64,000 nt of DNA, from positions 1,426,001 through 1,490,000 of the forward strand of contig CM102283.1 in assembly GCA_046563655.1 (NCBI GenBank), given 5' to 3'. The stretch's first letter is position 1. The number at the start of each line of letters is the position of its first letter. Of the stretch, positions 7,529 to 52,600 are shown piece after piece. Source of the DNA: Yuukianura sp. NJ FZ-2021. Taxonomy: Eukaryota. Under the pieces are notes generated by a model. The model made no database searches. It worked only from the letters and a program-made list of their open reading frames with translations, and was not told the DNA's origin. The position numbers and the translations under genes were made by a program.

Positions 7529-9575
7529 TTTGATTAGTTTAAAACTGGAACAGTAGAAAATGGAGCAGAAAATCTTTTCTTCTAGAAATTTTCTTCTTCA
7601 AAAATCAGAATTTTTTTTTTCGGAAAGGCACAATCACAAAAATGGTCACAAAAAATCAAATCAATTTTGGAGTGAAGTCTTTAATGTTCCTACCAAAAGA
7701 GAATAACGAATGTTAATGTTCTGGAAGAAGCACAAAACTTTGCACAAAAACGACCTTTTGCGCAACTTTTTAAAATTTCGTACTTTCTCCAAAAAGTTTT
7801 TTTCTTTTTGCAGAGCGTTTGTTTTTGTTTTGTGATGTTTACGACTCACTTAGTGTCTCAGTTTTTTTGCTTTTTTTTTAAAAAAACACACACAAAATTG
7901 TTGTATTTTCCTTCGTTTTACTTTTAGTTCCAAGTTCCTTTTGTTGGTCGTAATGGAATTAACCTTGGTTTAAACTCTTGAATGGACTCCAGAGAGGAAC
8001 TGAACCAGACCAAAGACGCTGCTCTCAGACAAGGCTGAAACACGTAACGGCTCGCCGCGGCGGCGCGGTTTGTTCAAACTTTCTCCGTTTGGCCAAAGCA
8101 CAAAGATTTCTCGTATGTAGAACCATTGTTTCCCCAGTTTTCTCCCGCAAACAGCAGAAATTGCCAAAACAAATCAGGCTAATTCAAAAGTAACCAATCA
8201 GAGGAAGCCCATTTCCCGATCAAACTTAGCAATACGAAGTTAGTGTCTCTTGAAATTGGCGGCTTTTGATTGGCTCGTTTTGATTTGGCCGAATTGGAAC
8301 GTGAACTGCTCCTATTGTAAGAAACGAGGCAAACGGGGGATGCAGAGAGGCGTAATAAGCAGGCAAAGATGCTTTCACCTCCTCAGCAGCCAAAACTGAC
8401 TTTTCAGCTCAAAACGACTTCGGTGGATCTTCCAACCTTTTCTTGCAACTTTCTGTGAGGGAGTTCTTTTTTGGTGTGGAAACTTTCTCCATGCAAATAA
8501 CATATCCGCAAACCGGCCAAAAAATTTACATCGTCCAAAGTGCAATTCCCAGACCACAAGTTTCAATAAGTTCCTTTGAGCATTTGTTCGGAGCCGTTTG
8601 GGAATCACATTCTGATTCAACGATCTCTTTGATCCGAACAGGAAGGAAAGAAAACTGTTACGCATATTGTTACTACTTCAAAAAAAGTTATGAAAATATA
8701 GAACAAGAATTTCAAAAACAAAAAGAGTTTTGGAAATAAACTGAAAAATTGTTTCATCGCTGCTGCTACTCTAATCGATCTCTGATTTTAAGAAAAGAAA
8801 ATTCTTAACAAAATTTTCAAATTTTGTGGGAGAGTTTCCTTATCGGTCGGTTTTAATTGCTTACACAGCTTGTTTCTGTTTTGAATTTAAATTTGGCGGA
8901 TAGTTTTGAAACTTAAAAATGAAAAAGTTGCTAGATTTTGAAAAGCGCAGAATGAGAAAAGTTTCAAGTTTTTGGATTTTGGAAGTGAACGAACGGTTGA
9001 GAGAATTTTAATAAAAGTTTTTAGGACTTCTGCCCTTCCAAGCTTTGGAGAAAGCCTACAACCCTTGAAAATCCAACAGTAGACAGAAGGACTTCGTTTT
9101 TGGAACTTGTCCCACTAGAGTCCCACCCTTGCCCCACCTCCCCCCGCACACAAAATCGGTGGGGCGGATACAAACTGTAACTTTTTGTGTCTGTCTACTC
9201 CCAATTGAGACGTTGATTGAATGAAAGGTGTGAAAAGCCAAATAATGTTGCGGAAGTGTCGCATTTTCTTTTTAGAACTATGGAGGCTAATGAAGTCACT
9301 TCGTCATAGAAGCTGGCGCCAAATTCAAATTCTTTGGTGGGAATTATTTCCTGGACTATACATTTCTCTTAAATCCATCTTTTTCAATTTGAATTCATAG
9401 TAACTCCGAAGACAACTTTCTTTTTCAGAAATTAATTAGAATTCACTTGTAAATGGAGGGGCGAATTATACTTGTGCTGATGCTGCTAAGAAATCTCTTC
9501 AAACCGGGCCACTTCAACTCAACTTTTGAAATTTCAAGTGGATTTTCTTTCACTTTCTTTACATTTCAGGAACTA

Positions 9576-10431
9576 TTGTTCATCTATTTTAAGAAGGCGG
9601 GTTTGAAATTCGCGCAAAAGTTTTATTTTTGTTTACTGTAACCCTCGTTGACTTAAGGTAGCTGTTGCGCATGTGTAACATGTGCAACAGCAACTGCGCG
9701 CGAGTGTCTTCTTTGTTCAAAACAGGTCAATTCCTTATTTTCATTTTATCTTATGTTTAACGTGGTTTCTCTTTCGCTAATTAATTGTTACCTCCATCAA
9801 TAATGGGTAAAGGGAAATCTTTTTCCTGGCAATCGAAGGAGATGATTGCCAGTACAGTGCTAACGTTTCTAGAAGAGAAAAGAAAATTTGAGAACGAAGT
9901 GAAGTTGGGACACATGAAGCATTCGGATATTCCCATAGACTATCTGAATGTGACCGATAGAACTGCCAAAACATTGCAGGTACGCAAGTGAAACTTAACT
10001 TTGTGAAATGACTTGGCGATGCACGGCTGGCTTGTATCAGGCATGTCATTGAATTAGAAAACCTAATCATGGAAACTGAAAACTTAGCAAATACCTTTAT
10101 GAGAACAAATCAAGATCGTATAATTATCGATTTGGAAAATGGATCGTCATCCGACACTGAGTACAGCTCAGAATCCAGCTCAGAATCCAGCGAAGAAGAG
10201 AGCGATTAAGTTTTAAAAACAAATTTCACTTAATTAGGATATGGGTTGTCGTAATTAAACTTTTGTCCATGGGTAACCTTCAGAGGAATTTAGCGTCAAT
10301 TTCAAATTTACCTTTTCTGAGTACGATAAATTGGTCGCGCCTTAACTCAACCCGTCAAATTTTACTTGCGTTGCTACTAGGAACAGCGCAAAAATAAATT
10401 TGAAACCCGCCTTCTTAAAATAGATGAACTA
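9576..10431 (+). mobile_element. Internally deleted IS630/Tc1/mariner-type DNA transposon
   Basis: About 35-bp TIRs (T[T/A]GTTCATCTATTTTAAGAAGGCGGGTTT[G/C]AAATT) flanked by TA at 9574-75 and 10432-33. Inside are an N-terminal exon (ATG 9803, MGKGKSFSWQSKEMIASTVLTFLEEK...NVTDRTAKTLQ|gt at 9980) and a C-terminal piece (ACIRHVIELE...DRIIIDLENGSSSDTE...ESD*, stop 10209). Both resemble the ends of insect Tc1-like DDE transposases; the DDE core is absent. Confidence 0.75.
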
Positions 10432-10627
10432 TAGATCTTTCGTCTCCTATTTCTACAGTACACAATTCCTTTCACTGGATTCTCATATTAATTTCAGCCT
10501 TAGCCAATCCCCGTGGTCCACAACGTCCCGGGTATTTTCAAAAGTTCAAAATTTCAAAACCTCCACAACAACAAACTTTCTCTTTCAATTTCAATTTCAT
10601 CGGAAAGGGCTTTTCGAAGTAACTCTC

Positions 10628-12717: not shown

Positions 12718-13226
12718 TGTGAGGAAGCAAAAGTAAGGTTGGCAGTGTTGTCCACTGCACCATGGCTACCTCCTGGCCCACTAGAGGTAAACAACCAGAC
12801 TTTGCTATCCTCCGTGTGACTGGCCTAGCCACACACCCCACAGGCCCCCGCACATTAAGACCTGGACCCCAGGTCTCAGCCTTCAAGATCCCACTATCAC
12901 ACTGGACAGACAGAGCACCTTATCAGTTGGGTCGGATCTGATAAAGTCTGGGAAGGGGAGTAGGCATCAGGGACGTAGCGTCTTTAAGACAGTTACCTAT
13001 TCTGCTGTCCAGCAGTCAATGGTCAACCCGGCTCAGGCTAGGGTATGACAAGAAAAATTTTCTTGGCCACGGGGGAATCGAAACCCGTCTGAGCCCCCAC
13101 ATGTGAGGAAGCAAAAGTAAGGTTGGCAGTGTTGTCCACTGCACCATGGCTACCTCCTTGCCCACTAGAGGTAAACAACCAGACTTTGCTATCCTCCGTG
13201 TGACTGGCCTAGCCACACACCCCACA
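12718..13226 (-). mobile_element. TRIM-like miniature non-autonomous LTR retroelement, 509 bp
   Basis: Two 125-bp direct repeats (12718-12842 and 13102-13226), each TG...CA and differing at one base. 4-bp TSD TTGG (12714-17, 13227-30). On the minus strand TGGGGGCTCAGACGGG follows the 5' LTR and resembles a tRNA-Pro PBS (TGGGGGCTCGTCCGGG). The 259-bp interior is non-coding. Confidence 0.85.
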
Positions 13227-13609: not shown

Positions 13610-13864
13610 GGAACTGTATCAAGCTACTTTAATCCCAGCATGTTGGGATTTATATGGAACAGTATTTGGATAATTAAAATTTTAAACCACAAACCTCAAT
13701 CCTCTTAGATTTTTAATCATTTCCAGACCGTATCGCTAGAATGATTGACTTTTTGAAACCAGTTGCTAATTAGAAGTTGATCGATCAACAACTTCCTCAT
13801 CACACAAATTGTTCAACATTGCACTCCTTCTATAACAGCTTTTTTAGAAATTAATTCGTACAAC

Positions 13865-16291
13865 ATGAATTCAGACCAAGAGAAAATTGTGCTCGATGCG
13901 TTTCGTTTAGGCATTGCCTGTTCTGAACAACTTTTTAAACTTTTAGAAGAAAATGCCCGATGTATTTTGACTGGCGATTTGACAGCCGTGGAAGAGTTGA
14001 ATTCAGTTTTTCAAAAAGTTGAAAAAGCCACTGACGCTGTTACGGTTGAAAAAGTCCGAAATTTTGGAAAATCAATTGCAGTAATTTTGGAATCAAGTGG
14101 ATACTCGCCAAGGGACTCTTCTGCTTTGGGAATTCTAAAACAAGTTCAAATTTCGCGCCATCTCGGATTTTGTTCTCTCGTGACCTTGAACAGAGTGACG
14201 AGATGTTTGGCCAGCTACGGCTTTTCGACTCGTCTTGACCTCAGACGACCAGCAGTCATTTCTGCGCAAAACAGACAAAAAATGGCAATGATTCTGCGCA
14301 TTGGCCAATTTGACCTCGTGGAGGTCAATGACCTTTTCATTTCTCTGGTTCTGGAATCTCAGATTTCAGTAACTCCGAGTGGACCGATTCACTGTGCAAT
14401 GACAGTGCCTGGATCCAAGAGTATATCAAATAGAGTACTGCTGATGGCAGCGCTTGGTCATGGCACATGCGCAATCGAAGGCCTTCTGGATTCAGATGAC
14501 ATTGTAGCCATGCTGAAAAGTTTGGAACAACTTGGAGTTAGATTTGAATGGACTCAAGGGGGTCAAAGGTTAGTCGTCTACGGTTCAGACGGGAAATTCA
14601 AACAACCAGAACAACCACTCTATCTGAACAACTCCGGTACTTCGGCTCGGTTTCTAACGTCGGCGGTTTGCCTTGTTCAAAGTGAGAATGAAAACGGCGG
14701 GAAAGGCCGAGCATCTACGATTCTTACCGGAAATGCCCGAATGCAGGAAAGGCCGATCGGACCACTCGTTTCGGCTCTTCAGTCCAACGGTTGCGAAATT
14801 TCATACTTTGAAAATACCGGATGTTTGCCAATTTCCGTTGGCGCCAAAACTTTTTCTGGCGGGAAAGTTTTTATTGAAGGGAAAGTCAGCAGTCAATACG
14901 TGTCGTCAATTCTAATTTCGGCGCCATACGCTCAGACGCCGCTTACGCTTCAATTGGCCGAAGAAAATCCAGTTTCCCTGCCATACATTCTAATGACGGT
15001 GAAATTGATGCAGGATTTTGGAATCCCCGTGAAATTTCTGGCGCCAAACGAACTTCAAATTCCCACAGGCGTTTATGCCAATCCGGCTAAATTTTTGGTT
15101 GAACCTGACGCTTCTTCAGCTACGTACCTCCTTGCTATGGCAGCTATCACTGGTGGAGACGTTACTGTCCGGCATCTTGGATCGCAAAGTCTCCAAGGAG
15201 ACGCCAAGTTCTACGAAGCGCTGGTAGCAATGGGATGCGATGCTGTTCAAACTGAGCTAGAAACGAGGGTGCGTGGACCGACGGATAAGCGTCTGCGCAG
15301 TGTCAAGATTAACATGGAGACGCTGACAGATGCGTTCATGACAATCGCTGTCTTGGCAGCAGTGGCTGAAGGAAAAACTGAAATTCGGGGAATTACGAAT
15401 CAACGTGTCAAGGAATGCAACAGAATTGCAGTTATGGTGGAAGAATTGACTAAACTTGGAGTCAATTGTGGTGAGCTGGAAGACGGACTTTGGATAGAAG
15501 GAATTCAAAATTTTGAAAACTTCAAAACTCCCGCCTTCATAAATTGTCACGATGATCATAGGATTGCTTTGAGTTTTGCTGTCCTTGGTTCCAAAATTCC
15601 TGGAATTGTCATACTGGACAAAGAATGCACTTCTAAAACCTATCCAGGATTCTGGGATGACTGCAGAGCAATCCAGGTATCACTTTGCCCCGGTTCCAGA
15701 ATTTGCACAGCCAATCAAAACTCTTCGTCGATTTTCTCGACCAATGAAAACTTCCCGCCGACTTTCTTGGTGGGCATGCGTGGTTGCGGCAAAACGACTT
15801 TTGGCAAACTTGCAGCATCCGCCCTTGGCTTGTCGTTTCTCTGCATGGACCAAGTGCTGGAATCGCAATTCGGAGAATCCATTTCTTGCTTTGTTGAAAA
15901 ACACGGATGGGCGGAGTTTCGTGCCGAAGAAGAAAGACTTCTGCGCAGACTCGTGGAATCAAATCCAATAAACACAATAGTCTCTTGTGGTGGTGGAGTA
16001 GTTGAAACTCCAGGGTGCCTTGACCTGTTAGGTCAATGCCTTTTGGTCATTAACATCGAAAGACCTTGGGAAGAAGTCAAATTTACTCTTCTGCAACCAA
16101 GTGACTCTCGACCGGAACTTCCCGAACAACTTGAAGTCGTGTGGAATCGGAGACGCCCTTTATATAAAAAATGTTCCCGCTACGAATTTCGAACGAGTTT
16201 CGACAACTCGGCGGCAGTCATTGAAAAATCTACTCAAGATTTTATCCAATTTTTAGAAAAGTTGTTAGCAAACCATAAACAAATCGCTTAA
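13865..16291 (+). CDS. Truncated AROM-derived protein, 808 aa: degenerate C-terminal DHQ-synthase remnant + EPSP synthase + shikimate kinase (aro1/aroM-like, horizontal-transfer candidate)
   Basis: Intronless ORF with CAAC-ATG start context. EPSPS motifs: PGSKSISNR (14408), LNNSGTSARFL, RMQERPI, VSSQYVSS, EPDASSA, TDAF, RVKECNRI, DDHRIA, KTYPGFW. Shikimate kinase from ~15761: Walker A GMRGCGKT, FRAEE, SCGGG, SRP, RRPLY. The N-terminal ~170 aa align by eye to the AROM DHQS C-domain (NFGKSIA for NFGHSIGH; SRHLG...RCLASYGF). Domain order matches AROM. Confidence 0.93.
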   Translation: MNSDQEKIVLDAFRLGIACSEQLFKLLEENARCILTGDLTAVEELNSVFQKVEKATDAVTVEKVRNFGKSIAVILESSGYSPRDSSALGILKQVQISRHLGFCSLVTLNRVTRCLASYGFSTRLDLRRPAVISAQNRQKMAMILRIGQFDLVEVNDLFISLVLESQISVTPSGPIHCAMTVPGSKSISNRVLLMAALGHGTCAIEGLLDSDDIVAMLKSLEQLGVRFEWTQGGQRLVVYGSDGKFKQPEQPLYLNNSGTSARFLTSAVCLVQSENENGGKGRASTILTGNARMQERPIGPLVSALQSNGCEISYFENTGCLPISVGAKTFSGGKVFIEGKVSSQYVSSILISAPYAQTPLTLQLAEENPVSLPYILMTVKLMQDFGIPVKFLAPNELQIPTGVYANPAKFLVEPDASSATYLLAMAAITGGDVTVRHLGSQSLQGDAKFYEALVAMGCDAVQTELETRVRGPTDKRLRSVKINMETLTDAFMTIAVLAAVAEGKTEIRGITNQRVKECNRIAVMVEELTKLGVNCGELEDGLWIEGIQNFENFKTPAFINCHDDHRIALSFAVLGSKIPGIVILDKECTSKTYPGFWDDCRAIQVSLCPGSRICTANQNSSSIFSTNENFPPTFLVGMRGCGKTTFGKLAASALGLSFLCMDQVLESQFGESISCFVEKHGWAEFRAEEERLLRRLVESNPINTIVSCGGGVVETPGCLDLLGQCLLVINIERPWEEVKFTLLQPSDSRPELPEQLEVVWNRRRPLYKKCSRYEFRTSFDNSAAVIEKSTQDFIQFLEKLLANHKQIA

Positions 16292-20784: not shown

Positions 20785-22100
20785 ATGTTGAAAGCCCTAA
20801 TTTTTGTTGTAGGCGTTAGCGTGGCCTTGGGCAATTCCGATTTTGAAGGTAGGCGAAGCTGATTTATAGAACATAACCTGACTTAATTTATAATAAAACT
20901 AATTAAGTACACATTATTTGAATCGCAGAATTCGACTCCAAGTCCGCGGCCGCCGCCCAGTGTGGAGCACAAAAGGACGTCGACCTGTCATTTTTCAACC
21001 TTAAAGTAGCTGAGGTCAGAACGCTTCTCGCCGACAAGCTTGAGAAATCTGCAGCAGAAGAAACCTTCAGTAGCCGCGATGCGTCAGCAAACTCCATTCA
21101 AACCAGCGTGTCCGAGAGCGGAATGGGAGTCGTCCGCAAAACCGTGCATTTCCCCAACAAAACCCGGGTTTTAGTCAAAGTCATGAAAACCAACAAGGCC
21201 ACAGGGAACTTTGCCACAGACTTGACCAGGACACCGGAAAACAAAGTAGACGCCAGTACCTCGGGCAACTTTGACTTTGGCGTTGACTTGCAAGCTTTTA
21301 CCAAAGATACGAACGTACACAGGACGGTCAGCGGAGGCTCATCACTGACAGTAAAGTCGTCAACTGCATTCATCCAGCTAGGTGATACCAAGGTTTTACA
21401 AACTAATGCTTCAGCATCGGCTTCCACTTCGGTTTCCTCCGTTGATGCTTCAGGATCCGGCGGCAAAGGCCGTAGCTTTACGGCACAGGCGACCGCAACC
21501 TCATCAGCTGACACGTTTATCTTTTCAAAGAAGTGTTTCATATCTCGGGTCAAGTTTGACTTTGGCATCAAAGTCGACGGTATACGTGTGACTGCTTCGA
21601 TTGCTGGAAAAGGCAACGGCCGTGTCTTTACTCGTGTTCTCGTTGCTAACAAAAATGGAACTTCGGTTATTCATAGCTACGCAGAATTTAAAATCCAAAC
21701 TGAGCTGGACATACAAGGAAAAAATAAGTCCTTAAACAAGTCCTTTCAAGGGACCCAAAATATAACTATTACTGCTCATACCGAAACGATTGTTCGGAAG
21801 GTCAATGGTGCTGATGAAAACAGCGGTAGGGTTTTTGTTGTTTCAAATGAAATCAAGCTTCGAGTGGGCGTCCAAACTGTCTTGGACAACGGACCTAAGA
21901 TAGTATCAAGCGGTGGTCAAATTCTGTTTAGAAATTCACGGTTCAATATTCCCGTCTCTGCCTCTACGTTTGAAAATAAGGATAATGGTGATGGATCCGG
22001 TATCATGACAGACAGCATTTTGACGAAACAGGAACAAGGTGACGACGTTTTGGTCAACAACGACTTTGTCAACAATGTTGTGTCATCAGCAATAAACTAA
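20785..22100 (+). CDS. Secreted, Ser/Thr/Gly/Val-rich, predicted beta-rich protein of unknown family, 411 aa, 2 coding exons
   Basis: Exon 1 20785-20848 (MLKALIFVVGVSVALGNSDFE, signal peptide), 80-nt GT-AG intron 20849-20928, exon 2 20929-22100 in frame with the listed 330-aa ORF. AATAAA at 22125. Confidence 0.85.
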
Positions 22101-27952: not shown

Positions 27953-29984
27953 TCATTCGTTCCTTAAACCCAGAAAGGAAACGCACTGCTGAAAGCTTTG
28001 ATGGATTACGTCCTTACTGCATCGTGCTGTGGACTTGGATTGATGTACGTTAAGGTCCTCGTTCCGTAAACCCAGAAACGAAATGCACTGTTCAAAACTT
28101 TTATGGATTACTTCCTTACTGCAACGACCTCTGCTCTTGGACTGATGTACTTTAAGTCCATCCTCAGTAAAGAAGCCCTGATAACATTTACTACAAAAGT
28201 ACTGGAAGTCTCTGCAATGTTCAAGTCTCGTGTGTCGTTCAAGAGCATCAACTGATGTGAGGAATTGGACGGAACAGCCTGCGACAGTACAGAAGTACCA
28301 TGACTCTGGTTCTGGATGTACGGTTTTCATGTGGAAATTTTTTAACGCCGCTGATGAGAACGTTTTTGGACAGTTGGGACATGGCAGTCTTGGTTTGAAA
28401 CTGGTGTTCAGCGATTTCACATCTCCTTTCCGTTTTCGATTTGCTGCTAACTTCATGCGGTCGATTAGTTGAGGAGTGTTGTTTTCCGAGTAAAACGGCC
28501 CATCACATCGATCAAGTTGTAACTTGGCTAGCTTCAACCGAAAGTATCCGTTCGGCCGCGTCATTATTCGTTCTAAAAGAGAAAGATAAAGCTTTGTAAT
28601 TGTATAACGTTTCGTTTCACTTAATACGAACACACATTTACCTAGGTATCTTGGAGCTGGATGGTCACCGCGATTCAAGGGTTGGTCTTCGTAATTTCGG
28701 ATTTCCATCACATCCGTTTGGTTTGTATGTAAATTATGCTGAGGTTGACAGAATTCTGCGGATTCATGGAATTAATATTATAATTCGAAATAATCCGACT
28801 AAAGGCTATGCTGATTGTTGAAAACGCTACCGGAATTATTTGCTGGTGTGTCATGAAGCCCCATCATGCCTAAACGATGGAGCCTGGTTGCAGCAGAACT
28901 ATGTTTTCTGGGTTGGTAGTATTTGTAGTATGCCACTTTCTTCTGGCATTGCTCACCGGTAACACGCAATCCAGAGATTTTTCCAATTTCCTCCGCGATT
29001 TCGTCATAAATATGAATCTTATTCGAATATTTGGCGCTGAGTTGACTACTTCGATCCCGGCAGAGTTTAAGCAAAAGTTCTAGATCATCGCCACTGAATC
29101 TAGTGTGAGAATTCTGAGGTGATGGAATGGTAGCATTATGATTGGACCAGTTGTCGTCGTCACTCTCTTGCTTGATCTGATCAACATGGTCGATATTATC
29201 ATTATGTTCGTCGCCAACGTCGTCATCGTTATGACCCTCCAGCGTATAATCCATTTCTGTGTCAGTATAACTTTGATTCACATCGTAGCCGTATCCATTC
29301 AATGACAGAATTGGCTCAACTGCCATATTGCTATGAAGTGCACCATCAATAATGTATGCAACCTGATGTGGAGTACCATTGAGTAGTAAACCTGAAACGT
29401 TCATACAATCAAAATGTTTCCTTATAATCCCAATTCTAGAAATTTTCTATAGTTATCGTTGTAGTTTATTTTGATTTTGCGTTTCTAGCTTACAATTAAC
29501 CAAGTCTTCGCGTAGGTCGATTGCCGACGTTTGGTTAGCGACAAAGTCCGACTCTGTGCCATGCTCCCCTGAGAAACTATTCTGGAAGGCCGTCCTAAGT
29601 TTGGATGAAACTTCCTTTACATTATTTTGAGTTTCAGCTATCAGCATTAGCAATTGGTGACCTTCTGCTGCAATTCTGCAGCAGCTAACACACAGTAGTG
29701 TTTGTGGTGGTTTTCCCTTCCAAATTGCAGTATTTCGAGGTTGGAAATTGAGGAGATGAGGTACCGATTCCAGTATTTCGGGAATCAGATGTTGCGAAAA
29801 CGAAGCATGGGCATAAATCGTTCGGCAGCATAGGATACACTGATCGTGATCGGAAGTAGTACCTCGTGGGTCCGCCAAGTGTCCTATGAAGAAAGAGCAA
29901 GTTCATACATATAAAAAAACTTCCGGTAAGGAAACAATTCAATAAGTGAAGTAACTCACCTAACTCTCTTCCAACTTGAAACAT
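27953..29984 (-). CDS. ZAD + Myb/SANT-like + 3 zinc-finger (2 C2H2, 1 atypical) transcription factor, ~569 aa (paralog B)
   Basis: Exons 29984-29960, 29883-29494, 29391-28831, 28755-28642 and 28572-27953, all phase-1 GT-AG introns. ZAD CILC...CVSC; Myb/SANT-like FSGDDLELLLKLC...IYDEIAEEI...VTGEQCQKK; fingers starting CPNC, CTVAGC, CSKC. Confidence 0.85.
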
Positions 29985-30330
29985 TCCTTATCACCGGCTT
30001 TCGATTCTCGATTCCAAAGTTCAGATTATGTCGCGTTTGAAAATTGAAATGAAGTTTAATTCTCCTCGAAGAAAGCAGAATTAACTTTAGTTTTTTACCA
30101 TTCGCTTCGTATACAAAAATTTGTAAATCGTATTACAAAAATACAAAACAAAAAAATAGTTAAAGGGACTGACTAAAACTCAGAATCCTCTGAATCAGAC
30201 GGTGGTAGGCTGAACGGGCAGCCTAATCGGCAGAATTAGCTGAACAATTTCGGTTTTTAAAATCGAGAATTCGTATTTTTCATTTTTTCCAAGTTGTCAG
30301 ATGCCGTCGATGACTTCTTAGATTTCGATT

Positions 30331-33075
30331 TCAACTTCTAGAGTCGCCTTGCCGACAAATGAGTTTGTGTCTGCCAAGGTTCTTCGTCGATGGAAATCCT
30401 TCGCCGCACTTTTCACAACGAACTCTTATTTGTGGGTCATGAACGACTTGAATGTGGGCTTTCAATGACTTCTTGCTGGCAAGGGACCTAGGACAATGTG
30501 GACACTGGACAGAAGGGACTCCACCATCGTGTCGCTTGAGATGGTCCTGTAGGTGTTGGTAGTATTTAAAACTGGATGGACATCGGTCGCACTGAAAATT
30601 CCTTTCGCCAGTGTGCTTGATATTGTGCATCCGAAGTAGTGCTGGACTATAAAAGTTAGCTTTACATCCCGGAAACGTACAAGGATATCTTACTATTGGT
30701 TGTTTTTCGGCAGTCGTATCGGGATGCTGCATCCGTACATGTCTGTTGAGGCCATCTATTCTGGCGTAAAATGCTCCACACACGGCACATGTGTATTTGT
30801 CTCTGCATTTGTCATGAACCTTTGCTTGATGATCTCTAAGGCCACCGCTGCGGGTGAACGCGACACTGCAGATCTCACAAACGAAGTTCCTTGCTAAATG
30901 TCGGTCCCTTTTGTGTCCAGAAAGTAATGCCCGGGTTCGGAACTTGAGGGGACAAGTATCGCAGCTGAAAGCTCGGAGCGATTCGTCGTGAACGATGGAC
31001 TCGTGGAATTTTAGAGCCGACTCGGTCAAGAACCCTTGACGACATGTGCCAATGTTGCAGAAGTACTGCAGGGCTCCGCCATGAACGTCTCTGACATGAT
31101 TTTCAAGGAGTAAAGGTGACTTGAATACTTCGGCGGAACAACCGTCGACTGAGCACGAGTACCGTTCTGATTTGCGGTGTACGGCAGCAACATGCTGAAT
31201 CTTTAGTGACTTTTCTGGAAACTTTTGCTGGCAGTATCGGCAAGAGTATTGATAATTACTACTACTGATATCTCTCGGATGTTCGGCTGCAACGTGCTGC
31301 ACCTTCTGTATCTTTTCTGGGAATTTCTGTGTGCAGTACCGACAAGAGTATTGTTTTCTCCTACCGGGTTCTCTCTTCCTCTTCTTTGATTCGTCCTCCA
31401 GTTCGCAAACTTTGAACTTGTTATGACTGGTTCGTTTCCTTTTCGGTTTGTGTTGAAGCACATTTTGATTCGACTTCGGAAGGATTCGGACAAGTTGTAA
31501 TTTCGCCAATTTCAGCCGGAACGATCCATTTGGTAGCATGACTGTACGTTCTAAGAAATATTGTTTTAGAGAGCTTTAGAATTTTTAGTTTCTAAAAGCC
31601 AAAAGCCAAACATAAATGCGAAAGCCCAAATGTTTTATGTCAGTAATACCTAAAACGCTTAGATCCTGCGCAGAAAGACTTTGTTCAAATTCGTATATCG
31701 GATCATAATCAGGATCCGAAGAATTATGTTCCTCCGGGTCATTACTATGCCTTATCCTCTCCTCAACTTCACCGTCGATTTCGTCCTTTTTCTCGTTTCG
31801 AAATATTAGATGTTTACCGGATTCTACGGAATAATGAAGCAATGCATTTGCATTTTATTAAAAACAAAGTGATTTGAGAGAAAGAATAAGTTATTCTGAA
31901 TAACTTTTGATTAGTAAACATACGATTAGAATGACCATCTTCAGCTGCAATACTCCTTTCACCAGCACCGCTATGTCTTGCTTTGTGTTTCAATTTCATG
32001 AGTTTTCTCCTGCATTGGTCACCGGTAACTCGGAGTGAAGTGGCTTTCCCAATTGCCTTTGCCATTTCTTCATAAATTGGAGCTTTATCAGTATGTTTGT
32101 CCGATAACTCACTGCTACGTTCATGGCAGAGTTTCATCAGAAGACCAACTTCAATGTCGCCGAACTTCAGACGGGGTTTTCTGGGAACAACGGTATCATG
32201 ACTCTTCAGTTTATCTTCATCCACAGTTTTTTCTTTTGTAATATCACCGTCGTCGACAGCGTTACTTGCTTCCGGCGTAATCCTGCTGTCGAACTGATCG
32301 TGATTATCCTCCTCCAGCGGTAAGGGTGAGTCTGGAAAACTTTGCGGCTCATCTTCGTCATGTTTCACCAACACAAGACTTGCTTCGGTAATAATACTGT
32401 TACGACTCGTAATCTCAGGAAGGTCAGTGTCTTGATGAAGATCAGTCTTGAACTGAAGGCCTAAAACGATTTACAATTACAATATACTTCACGTGATATG
32501 ACTGAATATCGATTATACTGTAGTTGAAGTTTCTATCCTTACAGTTAACCAACTCTTCTCGCAATCTTGTTGATGCAGTTTTGTTGCCCACAAAGGCCGA
32601 ATGCCTACTATGACCTTCTGATAAACTGTTGTTGATGGTCACCAGTACTTTTGATGTAACTTGCTTTATATTCTTTCGAGTTTCGACCAGTAGCTGTAGC
32701 AATTGATGTCCTTCTGCTGCGATCCTACAACATTGTCCGCAAAGCAGTGCGTTTGGTGAGTGCCCCTTCCAAATTGTTTTATTCCGAGGTTGAAAATCGA
32801 GGAGAAGAGGTACACATTCAATTACTTTTGGAATTAGTTGTGGAGTAGGAGCGTCAGAGAAAGTGGCAGAAATGAATTGGCAGCAAAATATACATTGATC
32901 ACAAGCATCGTGTTCTGGATCAATGGCAAGCCCGACTCCTGAAAAATAATATAAAAAAAAAAACAAAATTAGTCTTATTTTTCGATTACAATGAACTTAA
33001 TAAATACTTACCTGGGTCTCCAACTCCAACATCTTGCCGCCAACCGGTAACAACACTTGCTGCTTGGCTCGTCAT
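30331..33075 (-). CDS. ZAD + Myb/SANT-like + 11 zinc-finger (10 C2H2, 1 C2HC) transcription factor, ~796 aa (paralog A)
   Basis: Exons 33075-33012, 32938-32543, 32460-31924, 31823-31650 and 31550-30331, all phase-1 GT-AG introns. ZAD CIFC...CGQC; Myb/SANT-like FGDIEVGLLMKLC...IYEEMAKAI...VTGDQCRRK; HTGERNF linker. Exon structure is the same as paralog B. Confidence 0.88.
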
Positions 33076-49600: not shown

Positions 49601-52600
49601 AAATCTTTTGGCTAGAGGAATGACTGGAGAATGAATAGGAGAAGACAGCCTTTCACTTAACTTTTTCTTGTCATCAATAAAAATGGTCCATCGACCTCAT
49701 GAGCTTCTGCGCACAGTCACCGAACCATGTTCATCTGCGCATCTTCATCTCCAGCTGAGCAATTTCCACGCTTCGTTCCATCTGTGTAACTTCCTCTTTG
49801 CTTGACTTTGTTCTTTATCTCTCTTGACTTTCACTTTGTCTCACGAAAACGTGTGGAATTAGTTGTGATTAGTGGAAGGATCGAGCAAACAAATTACGAA
49901 ACTACAACTTTCTGGCGGGTAGCTTAAGAGAAAAATTGCGGTAACGCCTCAATCTAACATGAAAGATTATGATAACGTTTCACCTTAACTTGAAAAACTA
50001 AACTAAACTTATTAACCCAGCCTTAAGGAGTTTGGCTACAAGCCTTACCAATTACAACTTGAACTATTATGATAAAGTACTCTACGATGAAAATTTACGG
50101 TAACGCCGTTAAGTTAAAAACGGTTGGACAAATGCAAAACGCTATACCAAAATTCTCAGTTTCTTTAAAATTTCAACTCACGCTCCAAACCACTGTAAGT
50201 TTTTACCAAGGTCAAAAGTCAATTTCCGGCGGTCAATGGAGAAAACTAAAGTGCAATAGAAGATGCACCGAAGTTTAATCCAGTTTTATTGCGTCTGTTT
50301 AAACATTTGTTTGTAAGTTGATGTTCCATTACTCCTCTCCCTTCCTTCCTGGATGGTGAAAATGGAAGCTGGATTGCCCCTGCAAATGTCTTTTCGTTGC
50401 ATTTTACTGTCAGAGAGTTGTGTAAAATATTTCTTTTCTTCCCCCTCCGAATTGCAGTATACAATGCAGTTTAGCAGCTCCAAAGAATTTCCATTACGTT
50501 CACGTTTTCTTCAAAAAATGAAATCTCCCAAAACTAAGTTGCATGTGAAATCGGAATTCAATATTTTCTCCAACATGTCACTAAAAGTTTAGCCTTTTCC
50601 AAAAATTTCAAATCTTGAAAAATTATAAACAATTTTCTAACCGAAACTTTACATCAATCTAGTAAAACTTAAGTTAAAGTTAAACTCCGTGACATTTTTT
50701 TTTTCAAAATTCTGTAACTTCTGATCAAACAGTGAAAAAAAAAGGACTTCGAAACTTACTTTTTCATACTAGGGAGCTTGATTTGAGTAAAGTTTTGTAA
50801 AACAAAAGGAAATTTTAAACAAAATTGTGTGTAAAACAGGCGGGTTTTTTGGTAGTGTTGAAGTTAGAACAAAGGGTAATAACAGTTTGTTTGAATCTGG
50901 TCGTGAGTGTATTGCATATTGTACAATTCCGCTATTTGAATTCCGAAGCTGATCTTGCTTTTTCAAAAAAAAAAAAAAAAAAAACGAAGAATAGGCACTA
51001 ACAGTTATGCAAATAAAAGAACTCTTCCACTTTTCAAGTTCTGTCGTAGACACTCCAGTAGAATTTAGTCTAAGCACATAGTTTTAAAGGCAAAAGGTCA
51101 AAGGTCAAGTCTTAACAACTTAGCATATGCTGGATTTTGGAAGTGGAACATCAATAGTATACTTGATGCAGGTTATTTTTCAACTAAACATCGGTATGGT
51201 AGTGATCAAATTTTGTCAAAGGTCAAAGGTCAAGCTGATTTGAAACACTTTTAAACAAGTTTTTGCGTTTTTCTTGTGACTTTAGGTGTGACTGGAGTAC
51301 ACATCAATGACCTCCGAGTTCCCGCCATAATTCGAAATGGGACAGAGGAGACAGTGACGTTGGACTGTGACTATACACTGGAAGACCACGAGAGGGAGGG
51401 ACTGGTTGTGCAATGGTACTTTAACAACGAAGAGTCACCCGTCTTCCAGTGGATTCCAACACAGAGGCCACAGGATTTGGGGATTCTGCGCGGGAAGCTC
51501 AACCTCAACTACCAAGCGTCATCTGACAGATACAAAATGTACAGGGCACTTCAAATACAGCGCCCTCATACCAATCTTAGCGGAAAGTACTTATGCAAAG
51601 TGTCAACCATTAGCAACGACGCCTACAAATCTGGAACCATGCTCATCTACTGTAAGTTCACAACAATTCTTTCAATTTTTCAAAAAAAAAAAAAAATAAT
51701 AATAATTCTTTAAAAGTATGTACGTCTCGAGTTTTAAAAAAGTTACGCGATTTGTTAATTTTGGTGAGTTTTGCTCAACCGCAATCGCAGCATAAGCAAA
51801 ATACTCGGCAAAATTTTCTACTTGGGAGAGCAAAATTTTAAATTTTTGGTTCAATCCAAAAACTTGGCAAAATGTTCAACTTGGTAGAGCAAAATTTACA
51901 ATTTCTGGTTCAATCAGTATATAGTTACTCCCCCCCAGTTGGAAAACGATGCCAAACCACGCTATGGTATAGTTACTCCCTCCGGTTAGCAGAACTTTTT
52001 TTCTTACTTTTGAAATCTCCCGCTGAAGAGGCTTATGCTGAAATTGTGATCCTTATGAACTTTGAGCCTGGAGCTGAGACTTGAGTTTTTGGAATAAGGT
52101 TTTGTGTGGATCAGCATAATCTTCAAAATCACTTAAGTGGTTTGACTCCAGTCATCCAGGAAGCGCCAGATACCTGACAAAGGACTTGAGGACTCAATTT
52201 AAACTTAAGTTTAGAAGGAAATTGGGACCATCAAAGGACATATGATCTTGCAAAATTGAGTTTGTGCACCACTTCACTTATGACAATCTAGAAAGCCGTA
52301 TCATTTTGTTAGCATGCGGTACGGTTGTGGCTGCACAAAACTCTTCAAATCAGTTCGCACATTTGTCAAATTAGGTTAGGCAAAAAAAAAATTAGAGTGT
52401 TTTGAAGTTTTTAGTTATGCATTTTGAAAAATCTTAGTTTTCATCTTTGTAAATCTTTGTAAGTGGAATTTTTGAAATGTGCACTGGAAATTCTATAGTT
52501 TTTTCTTATCGAAATTTACTTTTCAGAATTTTGTTTTCGCTAAAAATTTGCGAGGGGGAAATGACTTCCCGTTAAAATTTTTTTTTAGCAGAAGCACGAA

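Follow-up and report, generated by a model that had tools for sequence, protein, structure and literature searches.

A truncated AROM-type gene with predicted shikimate kinase and EPSP synthase domains in DNA of a probable springtail

Here we describe a gene for a truncated AROM-type polypeptide on a 64,000-nucleotide stretch of DNA deposited under Yuukianura sp. NJ FZ-2021 (GenBank assembly GCA_046563655.1, contig CM102283.1, positions 1,426,001 to 1,490,000 of the forward strand). This whole stretch is hereafter called the window, and all coordinates are counted from its first letter. The best explanation of the gene, to which we assign a probability of roughly 0.65, is that an oomycete-type AROM was acquired horizontally, became integrated in the host genome and was reduced to a bifunctional shikimate kinase-EPSP synthase (EPSPS; EPSP is 5-enolpyruvylshikimate-3-phosphate). 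If so, an animal may own part of a pathway that is presumed to be missing from animals. The evidence comes from the anatomy of the gene, the contrast in conservation between its domains, its phylogenetic affinity and the composition of the surrounding DNA.

Results

Organization of the gene

Counted from its first ATG, the open reading frame (ORF) has 808 codons; from stop to stop, starting at position 13781, it has 836. When the ORF was put through 2000 mononucleotide shuffles, the longest frame had a mean of 76 codons and a maximum of 180; a frame of 808 codons is beyond chance. Pfam assigned residues 170-598 to EPSP_synthase (PF00275, E = 6.5e-111, 371.4 bits with a cut-off of 22.8) and residues 639-791 to SKI (PF01202, E = 1.5e-29, 103.7 bits with a cut-off of 22.1), and the NCBIfam aroA equivalog TIGR01356 scored 419.5 bits (cut-off 287.25). 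The top matches among solved structures were pentafunctional AROM proteins, namely those of Chaetomium thermophilum (6hqv, E = 6.8e-159) and Candida albicans (7u5s, E = 1.1e-139), and residues 65-802 of the ORF are colinear with residues 274-1043 of 6hqv over a single stretch. When seven AROM-type proteins were used as tblastn queries, each gave one high-scoring segment pair, and all seven fell within 13895-16273. Homology starts at approximately residue 180-207 of five full-length AROM queries (approximately 188 in one oomycete AROM) and stops at the end of the kinase.

Among the five domains of AROM (3-dehydroquinate synthase, DHQS; EPSPS; shikimate kinase, SK; dehydroquinase, DHQase; and shikimate dehydrogenase, SDH), only EPSPS, SK and half a remnant of DHQS are present. 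The colinearity with 6hqv and the nesting of the protein in an AROM-containing clade (see below) indicate descent from AROM. As far as can be read from the sequence, the gene is a cut-down AROM consisting of a dead remnant of the C-terminal half of DHQS followed by EPSPS and shikimate kinase (Table 1). For the missing parts of AROM, hidden Markov models (HMMs) were built from 30 sequences (N-terminal part) and 41 sequences (C-terminal part), and the window was searched with them in six frames. Neither tblastn nor these models detected the NAD-binding half of DHQS, dehydroquinase or shikimate dehydrogenase in the 64 kb (best HMM E values of 7 and 1.2), and the same tblastn and six-frame HMM searches revealed no upstream coding exon in the window. 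A hidden AROM exon upstream or downstream of the gene was also considered and was rejected, with no match of the N- and C-part models better than E = 1.2.

Table 1. Features of the truncated AROM gene in the window. Conserved columns are those defined under "Conservation by domain"; P0001 is the nearest metagenome relative.
Feature	Position	Strand	Residues or remark	Conserved columns kept	Identity to P0001
Whole gene, AROM-type polypeptide, truncated	13865..16291	+	808 codons + stop, intronless		
DHQS remnant (C-terminal half of 3-dehydroquinate synthase)	13865..14359	+	residues 1-165	12/36	42%
EPSP synthase domain, class-I-like	14360..15673	+	residues 166-603	138/145	70%
Glyphosate-sensitivity loop, N255-N-S-G-T-S-A-R-F263	14627..14653	+	corresponds to E. 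coli G93-P101		
Linker, weakly conserved	15674..15757	+	residues 604-631		36%
Shikimate kinase domain	15758..16288	+	residues 632-808	27/28	53%
Cys660 codon	15842..15844	+	Cys where the DxD motif of the kinase normally begins with Asp		
TTTTTTAG, candidate splice acceptor of an intron in the 5' untranslated region (speculative)	13840..13847	+	17 nt 5' of the ATG; read from the sequence		

An AlphaFold2 model of the whole protein, calculated from an input alignment of 50 sequences, has a mean predicted local distance difference test (pLDDT) score of 91.1 and a predicted template-modelling score (pTM) of 0.76. The score drops below 50 at linker residues 619-624. In Foldseek the model matched fungal AROM structures with E = 5.5e-71.

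The EPSPS domain

The initial annotation had marked the interval 14360-15670 as an EPSPS with complete active-site residues. This interval does correspond to the EPSPS domain (residues 166-602), but the larger truncated AROM, in which the domain is fused to a kinase, had been overlooked, as had its oomycete-like origin. To the alignment of E. coli K-12 AroA with the window protein we added eleven relatives, and every active-site residue that had been named was found at its place. The AroA residues K22/S23/R27 correspond to K185/S186/R190 of the window protein (motif PGSKSISNR), G96/T97 to G258/T259, R124 to R296, S169/S170/Q171 to S342/S343/Q344, D242 to D415, D313 to D489, K340/E341/R344 to K516/E517/R520 (motif KECNR), H385/R386 to H565/R566, and K411 to K591. 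AroA residues N94, R100, S197 and N336 are likewise retained. Altogether, 21 of the 26 AroA positions tabulated are identical in the window protein, and the five that differ (G93N, A95S, A98S, M99A and P101F) all lie in the loop formed by positions 93-101. The residues that bind shikimate-3-phosphate (S3P) and phosphoenolpyruvate (PEP), together with the catalytic ones, are identical to those of E. coli AroA in 21 of 21 cases. Judged by this alignment, the domain has a complete catalytic and substrate-binding set.

The loop reads LYLNNSGTSARFLT, exactly as first annotated. Its RFL in place of RPL had been regarded as a peculiarity, a view that does not hold: Phe101 occurs in 239 of the 243 AROM-type relatives with a recognisable loop. 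In the same set, Gly96 is found in 242 sequences, Ser95 in 32 and Ser98 in 17, and the real peculiarities of the loop are Ser95, Ser98 and Asn93. Over residues 166-603 the pLDDT of the model is mostly above 90, and its superposition on E. coli EPSPS 1g6s in Foldseek (TM score 0.91, root-mean-square deviation 2.8) reveals the two-lobed inside-out alpha/beta fold.

The shikimate kinase domain and the DHQS remnant

Alignment of the kinase domain to the shikimate kinase of Mycobacterium tuberculosis (1l4u) demonstrates that K15, D34, R58, GGG79-81, R117 and R136 of the latter are all retained. The counterparts of D34, R58, G79-81, R117 and R136 are D662, R686, G709-711, R749 and R763, and the Walker A motif is GMRGCGKTT. 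We take these residues to be the Walker A lysine, the shikimate-binding Asp, Arg and GGG, and the lid and adenine arginines. The PF01202 profile match, the Walker A motif, the Asp/Arg/GGG set and the equivalents of Arg117 and Arg136 all mark the domain as a shikimate kinase.

The N-terminal part of the protein is of a different kind. Its residues 68-128 align to residues 270-333 of DHQS 1dqs, but two motifs have been altered, with NFGHSIGH changed to NFGKSIAV and HGEC to RDSS. No Pfam match to the DHQS family (PF01761 or PF24621) was obtained in the ORF, the NAD-binding N-domain is absent, and the Zn-binding His is replaced, so that the segment does not qualify as a 3-dehydroquinate synthase. 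In Aro1 of C. albicans, H264, H268 and H280 bind the catalytic zinc, according to the available text of a published study (PMC9074039). The remnant is catalytically dead, because the counterparts of these zinc-binding histidines have been replaced. AlphaFold2 gives a pLDDT of 85-95 over residues 1-120 and predicts a helical domain there; the remnant is dead and yet predicted to fold.

Conservation by domain

As a measure of constraint, we used the alignment columns in which at least 90% of 47 other AROM-type proteins agree, with the two closest relatives left out. Within the same ORF, approximately 95% of such columns are kept in the EPSPS and kinase domains, as opposed to 33% in the adjoining remnant (Table 1). 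The columns of the first two domains are kept and those of the remnant are lost, which therefore points to selection on the EPSPS and kinase activities only. The truncated layout is common to two lineages, because P0001 starts at the same homologous point as the window protein and carries the same dead remnant, and it has persisted in both despite a residue divergence of approximately 40%.

These values also bear on the possibility that the gene is a neutral relic, i.e. a transferred fragment that is still open but is neither expressed nor used, as a piece of a decaying shikimate pathway. The clear decay of the DHQS part and the altered DxD motif of the kinase would fit such a relic. However, 808 codons have stayed open although the protein shares only about 47% identity with donor-type sequences and 59-60% with its nearest relative, and an unconstrained frame would have been broken over such a time of divergence. 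Moreover, the retention of 95% of the highly conserved EPSPS and kinase columns against 33% in the remnant is difficult to reconcile with neutrality. We consider a relic improbable.

Relatives and origin

A word-indexed search produced 917 matches among 8000 scored candidates. The nearest relatives are two metagenome proteins, P0001 (801 aa, 59-60% identity, encoded on a 2961-base metagenome contig) and P0004 (639 aa, 52-55% identity). The next best matches in this search are proteins of approximately 1250 aa with the domain order DHQS-EPSPS-SK-DHQase and 45-47% identity, whose named members are oomycetes (Nothophytophthora, Peronosclerospora and Aphanomyces). When 1.84 billion representatives were scanned exhaustively with HMMER (32,968 matches), P0004 (55%) was followed by P0127 (48%), and nothing closer was detected; P0127 is the AROM of Bremia lactucae and the best named full-length match. 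A scan of metagenome DNA for close relatives matched 116 stretches, none of which was a relative, and a second metagenome scan gave 80 loci, all with identity of at most 48% and without the P0001 contig among them; these loci were left aside in the analyses.

A phylogenetic tree was built from 57 rows and 633 columns of the EPSPS and kinase regions by a quick IQ-TREE run, with branch support from the SH-like approximate likelihood ratio test (SH-aLRT) only. The window protein and P0001 are joined with a support of 100, and P0004 is added with a support of 98. These sequences belong to a 24-row clade (support 100) that includes the AROMs of Aphanomyces, Nothophytophthora and Peronosclerospora, whereas Acanthamoeba, euglenid-like sequences and all fungi fall outside it. 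Long branches were flagged, including that of P0004, so the branching order inside the 24-row clade is unsure. The protein is placed among non-animal donors, in the oomycete AROM clade, which is the pattern of a horizontal transfer, and the gene would have originated from an oomycete-like AROM. A fungal origin was also considered and was rejected, with the fungal AROMs forming their own well-supported clade.

A second AROM-derived family was observed among the relatives. Five of its members are included in the tree (P0018, P0019, P0020, P0022 and P0025), where they branch within the oomycete-type clade by a long stem. The complete members have 977-1004 aa and consist of a full-length degenerate DHQS followed by EPSPS and shikimate kinase, without dehydroquinase. 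Their EPSPS carries N94H, as well as Q171T in the two members that were aligned. A single clade of this family with the window protein and its two nearest relatives is not rejected (p-AU 0.42, approximately unbiased test), but this grouping was picked post hoc and settles nothing.

Genomic context

The GC content at third codon positions (GC3) of the ORF is 0.41, compared with 0.31-0.50 in seven neighbouring ORFs. The 5-kb flanks have 37-39% GC and contain local direct repeats, and a local GC peak of 0.46 at 14001-16000 stands against 0.35-0.39 on either side. A domain scan of 17 long ORFs matched four of them, namely two C2H2 zinc-finger ORFs, one Myb/SANT-like ORF and one immunoglobulin (Ig) V-set ORF, with the Myb/SANT-like and V-set matches below the Pfam cut-offs. 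All of the further 102 ORFs of at least 75 codons (102/102) lacked a Pfam family, and a tRNA scan of the window detected none. A C2H2 zinc-finger ORF of 414 aa, approximately 12 kb downstream of the gene, has 109 relatives, and those named by organism are nearly all from animals, mostly arthropods, with two from fungi (table read by eye). The gene shares the same 64 kb with an animal-type C2H2 ORF, a possible sign of physical linkage to animal genes, the remaining neighbour matches being weak. The DNA bearing the gene looks like an animal chromosome, and the host is probably a springtail. Host-like composition (GC3) and the differential retention of conserved columns together speak for domestication of the gene.

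A contaminant or misassembly, with the ORF coming from an oomycete or another associated microbe or with a window that is not animal DNA, would account for an intronless ORF of 45% GC between flanks of 37-39%, for closest relatives that are metagenome proteins, and for V-set and Myb-like neighbour matches that stay below the Pfam cut-offs. However, the GC3 of the ORF equals that of the neighbouring ORFs, and no other microbial gene was found in the 64 kb (102/102 further ORFs without a Pfam family). Among the matches listed, no known oomycete exceeds approximately 48% identity and none has the truncated layout. In addition, the ORF lies 13.8 kb into the window with AT-rich, repeat-bearing DNA on both sides, and the animal-type zinc-finger gene follows downstream. 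Contamination is unlikely, and we attach very little weight to an explanation of this kind.

Several other features of the window were recorded. At 27953-32996 on the minus strand, six long ORFs stand in a row, including two with C2H2 zinc fingers and one with a weak Myb/SANT-like match; they could form a small cluster, or belong to a single gene that is interrupted by introns or frameshifts. For the 414-aa zinc-finger ORF, the nearest relative is a 400-aa metagenome protein with 36% identity. The weak immunoglobulin V-set match comes from a 152-codon ORF at 51255-51713 on the plus strand (E = 5.4e-05, 23.8 bits with a cut-off of 26). Between approximately 0.6 and 1.1 kb 5' of the gene, two direct repeats of 125 nt (12718-12842 and 13102-13226) are 99% identical and 384 nt apart; the ORFs over them carry the same peptide, and they may represent a short dispersed element. 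The segment 16887-19267, just 3' of the gene, represents a local duplication that has diverged, with seven repeat families (83-97% identity, spacings of 1151-1651 nt). A stop-to-stop frame of 392 codons at 20922-22100 on the plus strand has a GC3 of 0.49 and no Pfam family. Its 330-aa part that begins at the first start codon (21108-22097) gave no homologue among 3398 scored candidates, and the frame is either an orphan gene or a chance-extended one. The arms of a 41-nt inverted repeat (9570-9610 and 10397-10437) are 93% complementary and 786 nt apart, and could mark the termini of a small transposon.

Possible glyphosate sensitivity

The window EPSPS was compared with reference enzymes whose class labels are partly our own assumption. 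Matches to class I enzymes had E values of 1.6e-75 (E. coli), 5.1e-81 (Vibrio cholerae) and 1.4e-82 (8umj), and those to other EPSPS were 1.4e-25 (CP4), 1e-20 (Streptococcus pneumoniae) and 2.1e-33 (Coxiella); with the M. tuberculosis enzyme included, E for the non-class-I set ranged from 1e-20 to 1e-42. In Foldseek, superposition of the AlphaFold2 model on 1g6s, the E. coli complex of EPSPS with S3P and glyphosate, gave a TM score of 0.91, compared with 0.79 on CP4. Gly96 (not Ala) and Thr97, as in class I, are present as G258 and T259. The E. coli-like combination of Pro101, Ala95 and Ala98 is not found, these positions being F263, S257 and S260. T97I and P101S/L are tolerance mutations, and the F-type EPSPS of Neurospora arom is inhibited by glyphosate with a micromolar inhibition constant. 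In the titles of Protein Data Bank entries, G96A is described as glyphosate-insensitive, T97I and P101S/L are listed among mutant enzymes, and Ala100 is shown to occupy in CP4 the site equivalent to Gly96. In the available text of the EPSPSClass preprint (10.1101/2020.05.27.118265), the reference for class I is V. cholerae and that for class II is Coxiella.

By these comparisons, the window EPSPS is much nearer to glyphosate-sensitive class I than to tolerant class II. It should bind glyphosate because it is of the class I kind, keeps Gly96 and Thr97, and is modelled in a closed state that can be superposed on complexes with glyphosate. Binding is predicted as likely, with an affinity that is uncertain given Ser95 and Ser98, and glyphosate sensitivity is plausible. 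The proposal of the initial annotation that an arthropod may carry the target enzyme of glyphosate is partly supported by these results: what stands is an intact, class-I-like EPSPS with Gly96 and Thr97 kept, in DNA of animal appearance.

Discussion

Possible function

If the gene is expressed and its product is catalytically active, the kinase domain would carry out step 5 of the shikimate pathway, from shikimate to shikimate-3-phosphate, and the EPSPS domain step 6, from shikimate-3-phosphate and phosphoenolpyruvate to EPSP. The DHQS remnant would probably have no role beyond that of a scaffold for structure or dimerisation. The gene product alone would be expected to yield EPSP and not aromatic amino acids.

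The encoding of just these two steps is also compatible with a repurposed enzyme, which would be active but would not serve the de novo synthesis of aromatic amino acids. Examples would be the salvage of dietary shikimate from plant or fungal litter to EPSP or chorismate-derived cofactors, or the production of a secondary metabolite. The presence of the truncated layout in P0001 as well, and the lineage-specific changes by both active sites (S95/S98 and C660), would agree with such a role. AROM domains act autonomously, and where a single domain is inactive, other genes can take its place, according to the available text of the C. albicans study (PMC9074039). However, the S3P- and PEP-binding residues are all canonical, so the chemistry is probably unchanged. 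A repurposed enzyme is rather unlikely, though it deserves consideration.

Several observations weigh against the preferred explanation, that of a horizontally acquired, integrated and reduced oomycete-type AROM. Neither a promoter nor, within approximately 400 nt past the stop codon, a canonical AATAAA was seen when the sequence was read by eye. The DxD motif of the kinase lacks its first Asp, which is replaced by C660 (the segment reads SFLCMD); this position is Asp in at least 90% of the 47 other AROM-type proteins, Cys in P0001 and Asn in P0004. A95S and A98S flank Gly96 and Thr97 and are minority states (32/243 and 17/243). Sensitivity to glyphosate could be reduced by A95S and A98S because of this minority status and because position 98 corresponds to A103 of plants, which is among the sites altered in a triple allele for target-site resistance. 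The neighbour evidence for the identity of the host is weak. Finally, the EPSP formed may have no onward route.

A more far-reaching reading is that the host belongs to a soil hexapod lineage (springtail-like) with its own nuclear shikimate pathway, built from an oomycete-type AROM that was split into complementary genes, of which the window gene would supply steps 5 and 6. The animals themselves would then make chorismate-derived aromatics, and glyphosate would act on them directly, and not via the microbiota alone. Such a full pathway is proposed tentatively, as a possibility rather than an expectation. Inhibition of the gene product by glyphosate is a prediction.

Significance

To our knowledge, glyphosate risk assessment presumes that animals have no EPSP synthase. 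If a soil hexapod does encode a class-I-like EPSPS that is maintained by selection, this enzyme would be a direct molecular target of glyphosate. In the available part of a toxicity study on springtails, soil invertebrates are said to lack the EPSPS pathway, yet reproduction fell under glyphosate, with a half-maximal effective concentration (EC50) of 93.5 mg/kg (PMC8226473). The present gene, if our reading is true, would make a puzzle of ecotoxicology open to testing. Moreover, it would represent the transfer of a multi-enzyme fusion from another eukaryote to an animal. The trimming of the protein domain by domain, with a fossil half-domain left behind, would show how fusion proteins get dismantled. 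A full-text search, which covered few subscription journals and supplements, returned no published report of an EPSPS or AROM gene in the genome of a springtail or another arthropod. The available part of a review on horizontal transfer in arthropods mentions only chorismate mutase in a shikimate context (PMC4943190).

Comparison with known systems

The closest named systems are the AROMs of oomycetes, such as that of Bremia lactucae (A0A976FEQ7, 1545 aa) and those of Aphanomyces, Nothophytophthora and Peronosclerospora. They share the domain order DHQS-EPSPS-SK with the window protein, are 45-48% identical to it over residues 10-800, and form a strongly supported common clade with it; Phe101 and a residue other than Gly at position 93 are found in both. 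Unlike them, the window protein is without the NAD-binding half of DHQS and everything after the kinase, and its remnant has lost the conserved His of NFGHSIGH and HGEC. The window gene also differs in that it lies in animal-type DNA with a host-like composition.

Fungal AROM/Aro1 proteins (6hqv; C. albicans 7u5s and 7tbu) have the same EPSPS and kinase active sites as the window protein. However, they possess four or five active domains, as opposed to two predicted ones, and fall in a separate clade. Fungal AROM dimerises via a complete DHQS domain, of which the window protein retains half. A dead domain inside an AROM has a precedent in the dehydroquinase domain of C. albicans, according to the available text of the same study (PMC9074039).

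Of the two metagenome proteins, P0001 resembles the window protein in its start point, its dead remnant, its NSGTSARF loop and its kinase Cys. P0004 is unlike it in lacking most of the remnant and in having Ala95 and Ala98. Class I EPSPS enzymes (E. coli 1g6s, V. cholerae 3nvs and the 8umj series) share the catalytic and ligand residues as well as Gly96 and Thr97, with TM scores of 0.88-0.92. They are single-domain proteins, and E. coli has Pro101, Ala95 and Ala98 where the window protein has Phe, Ser and Ser.

Horizontally transferred shikimate-pathway enzymes have also been reported for the genome of the sea anemone Nematostella vectensis. Its shikimate genes were traced to bacteria, from a Tenacibaculum-like flavobacterium that is also a symbiont of the host, as described by Starcevic et al. 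(2008) and relayed in the available text of PMC4237138. In contrast, the window gene appears to derive from an AROM fusion of eukaryotic type and lies within AT-rich DNA of the host.

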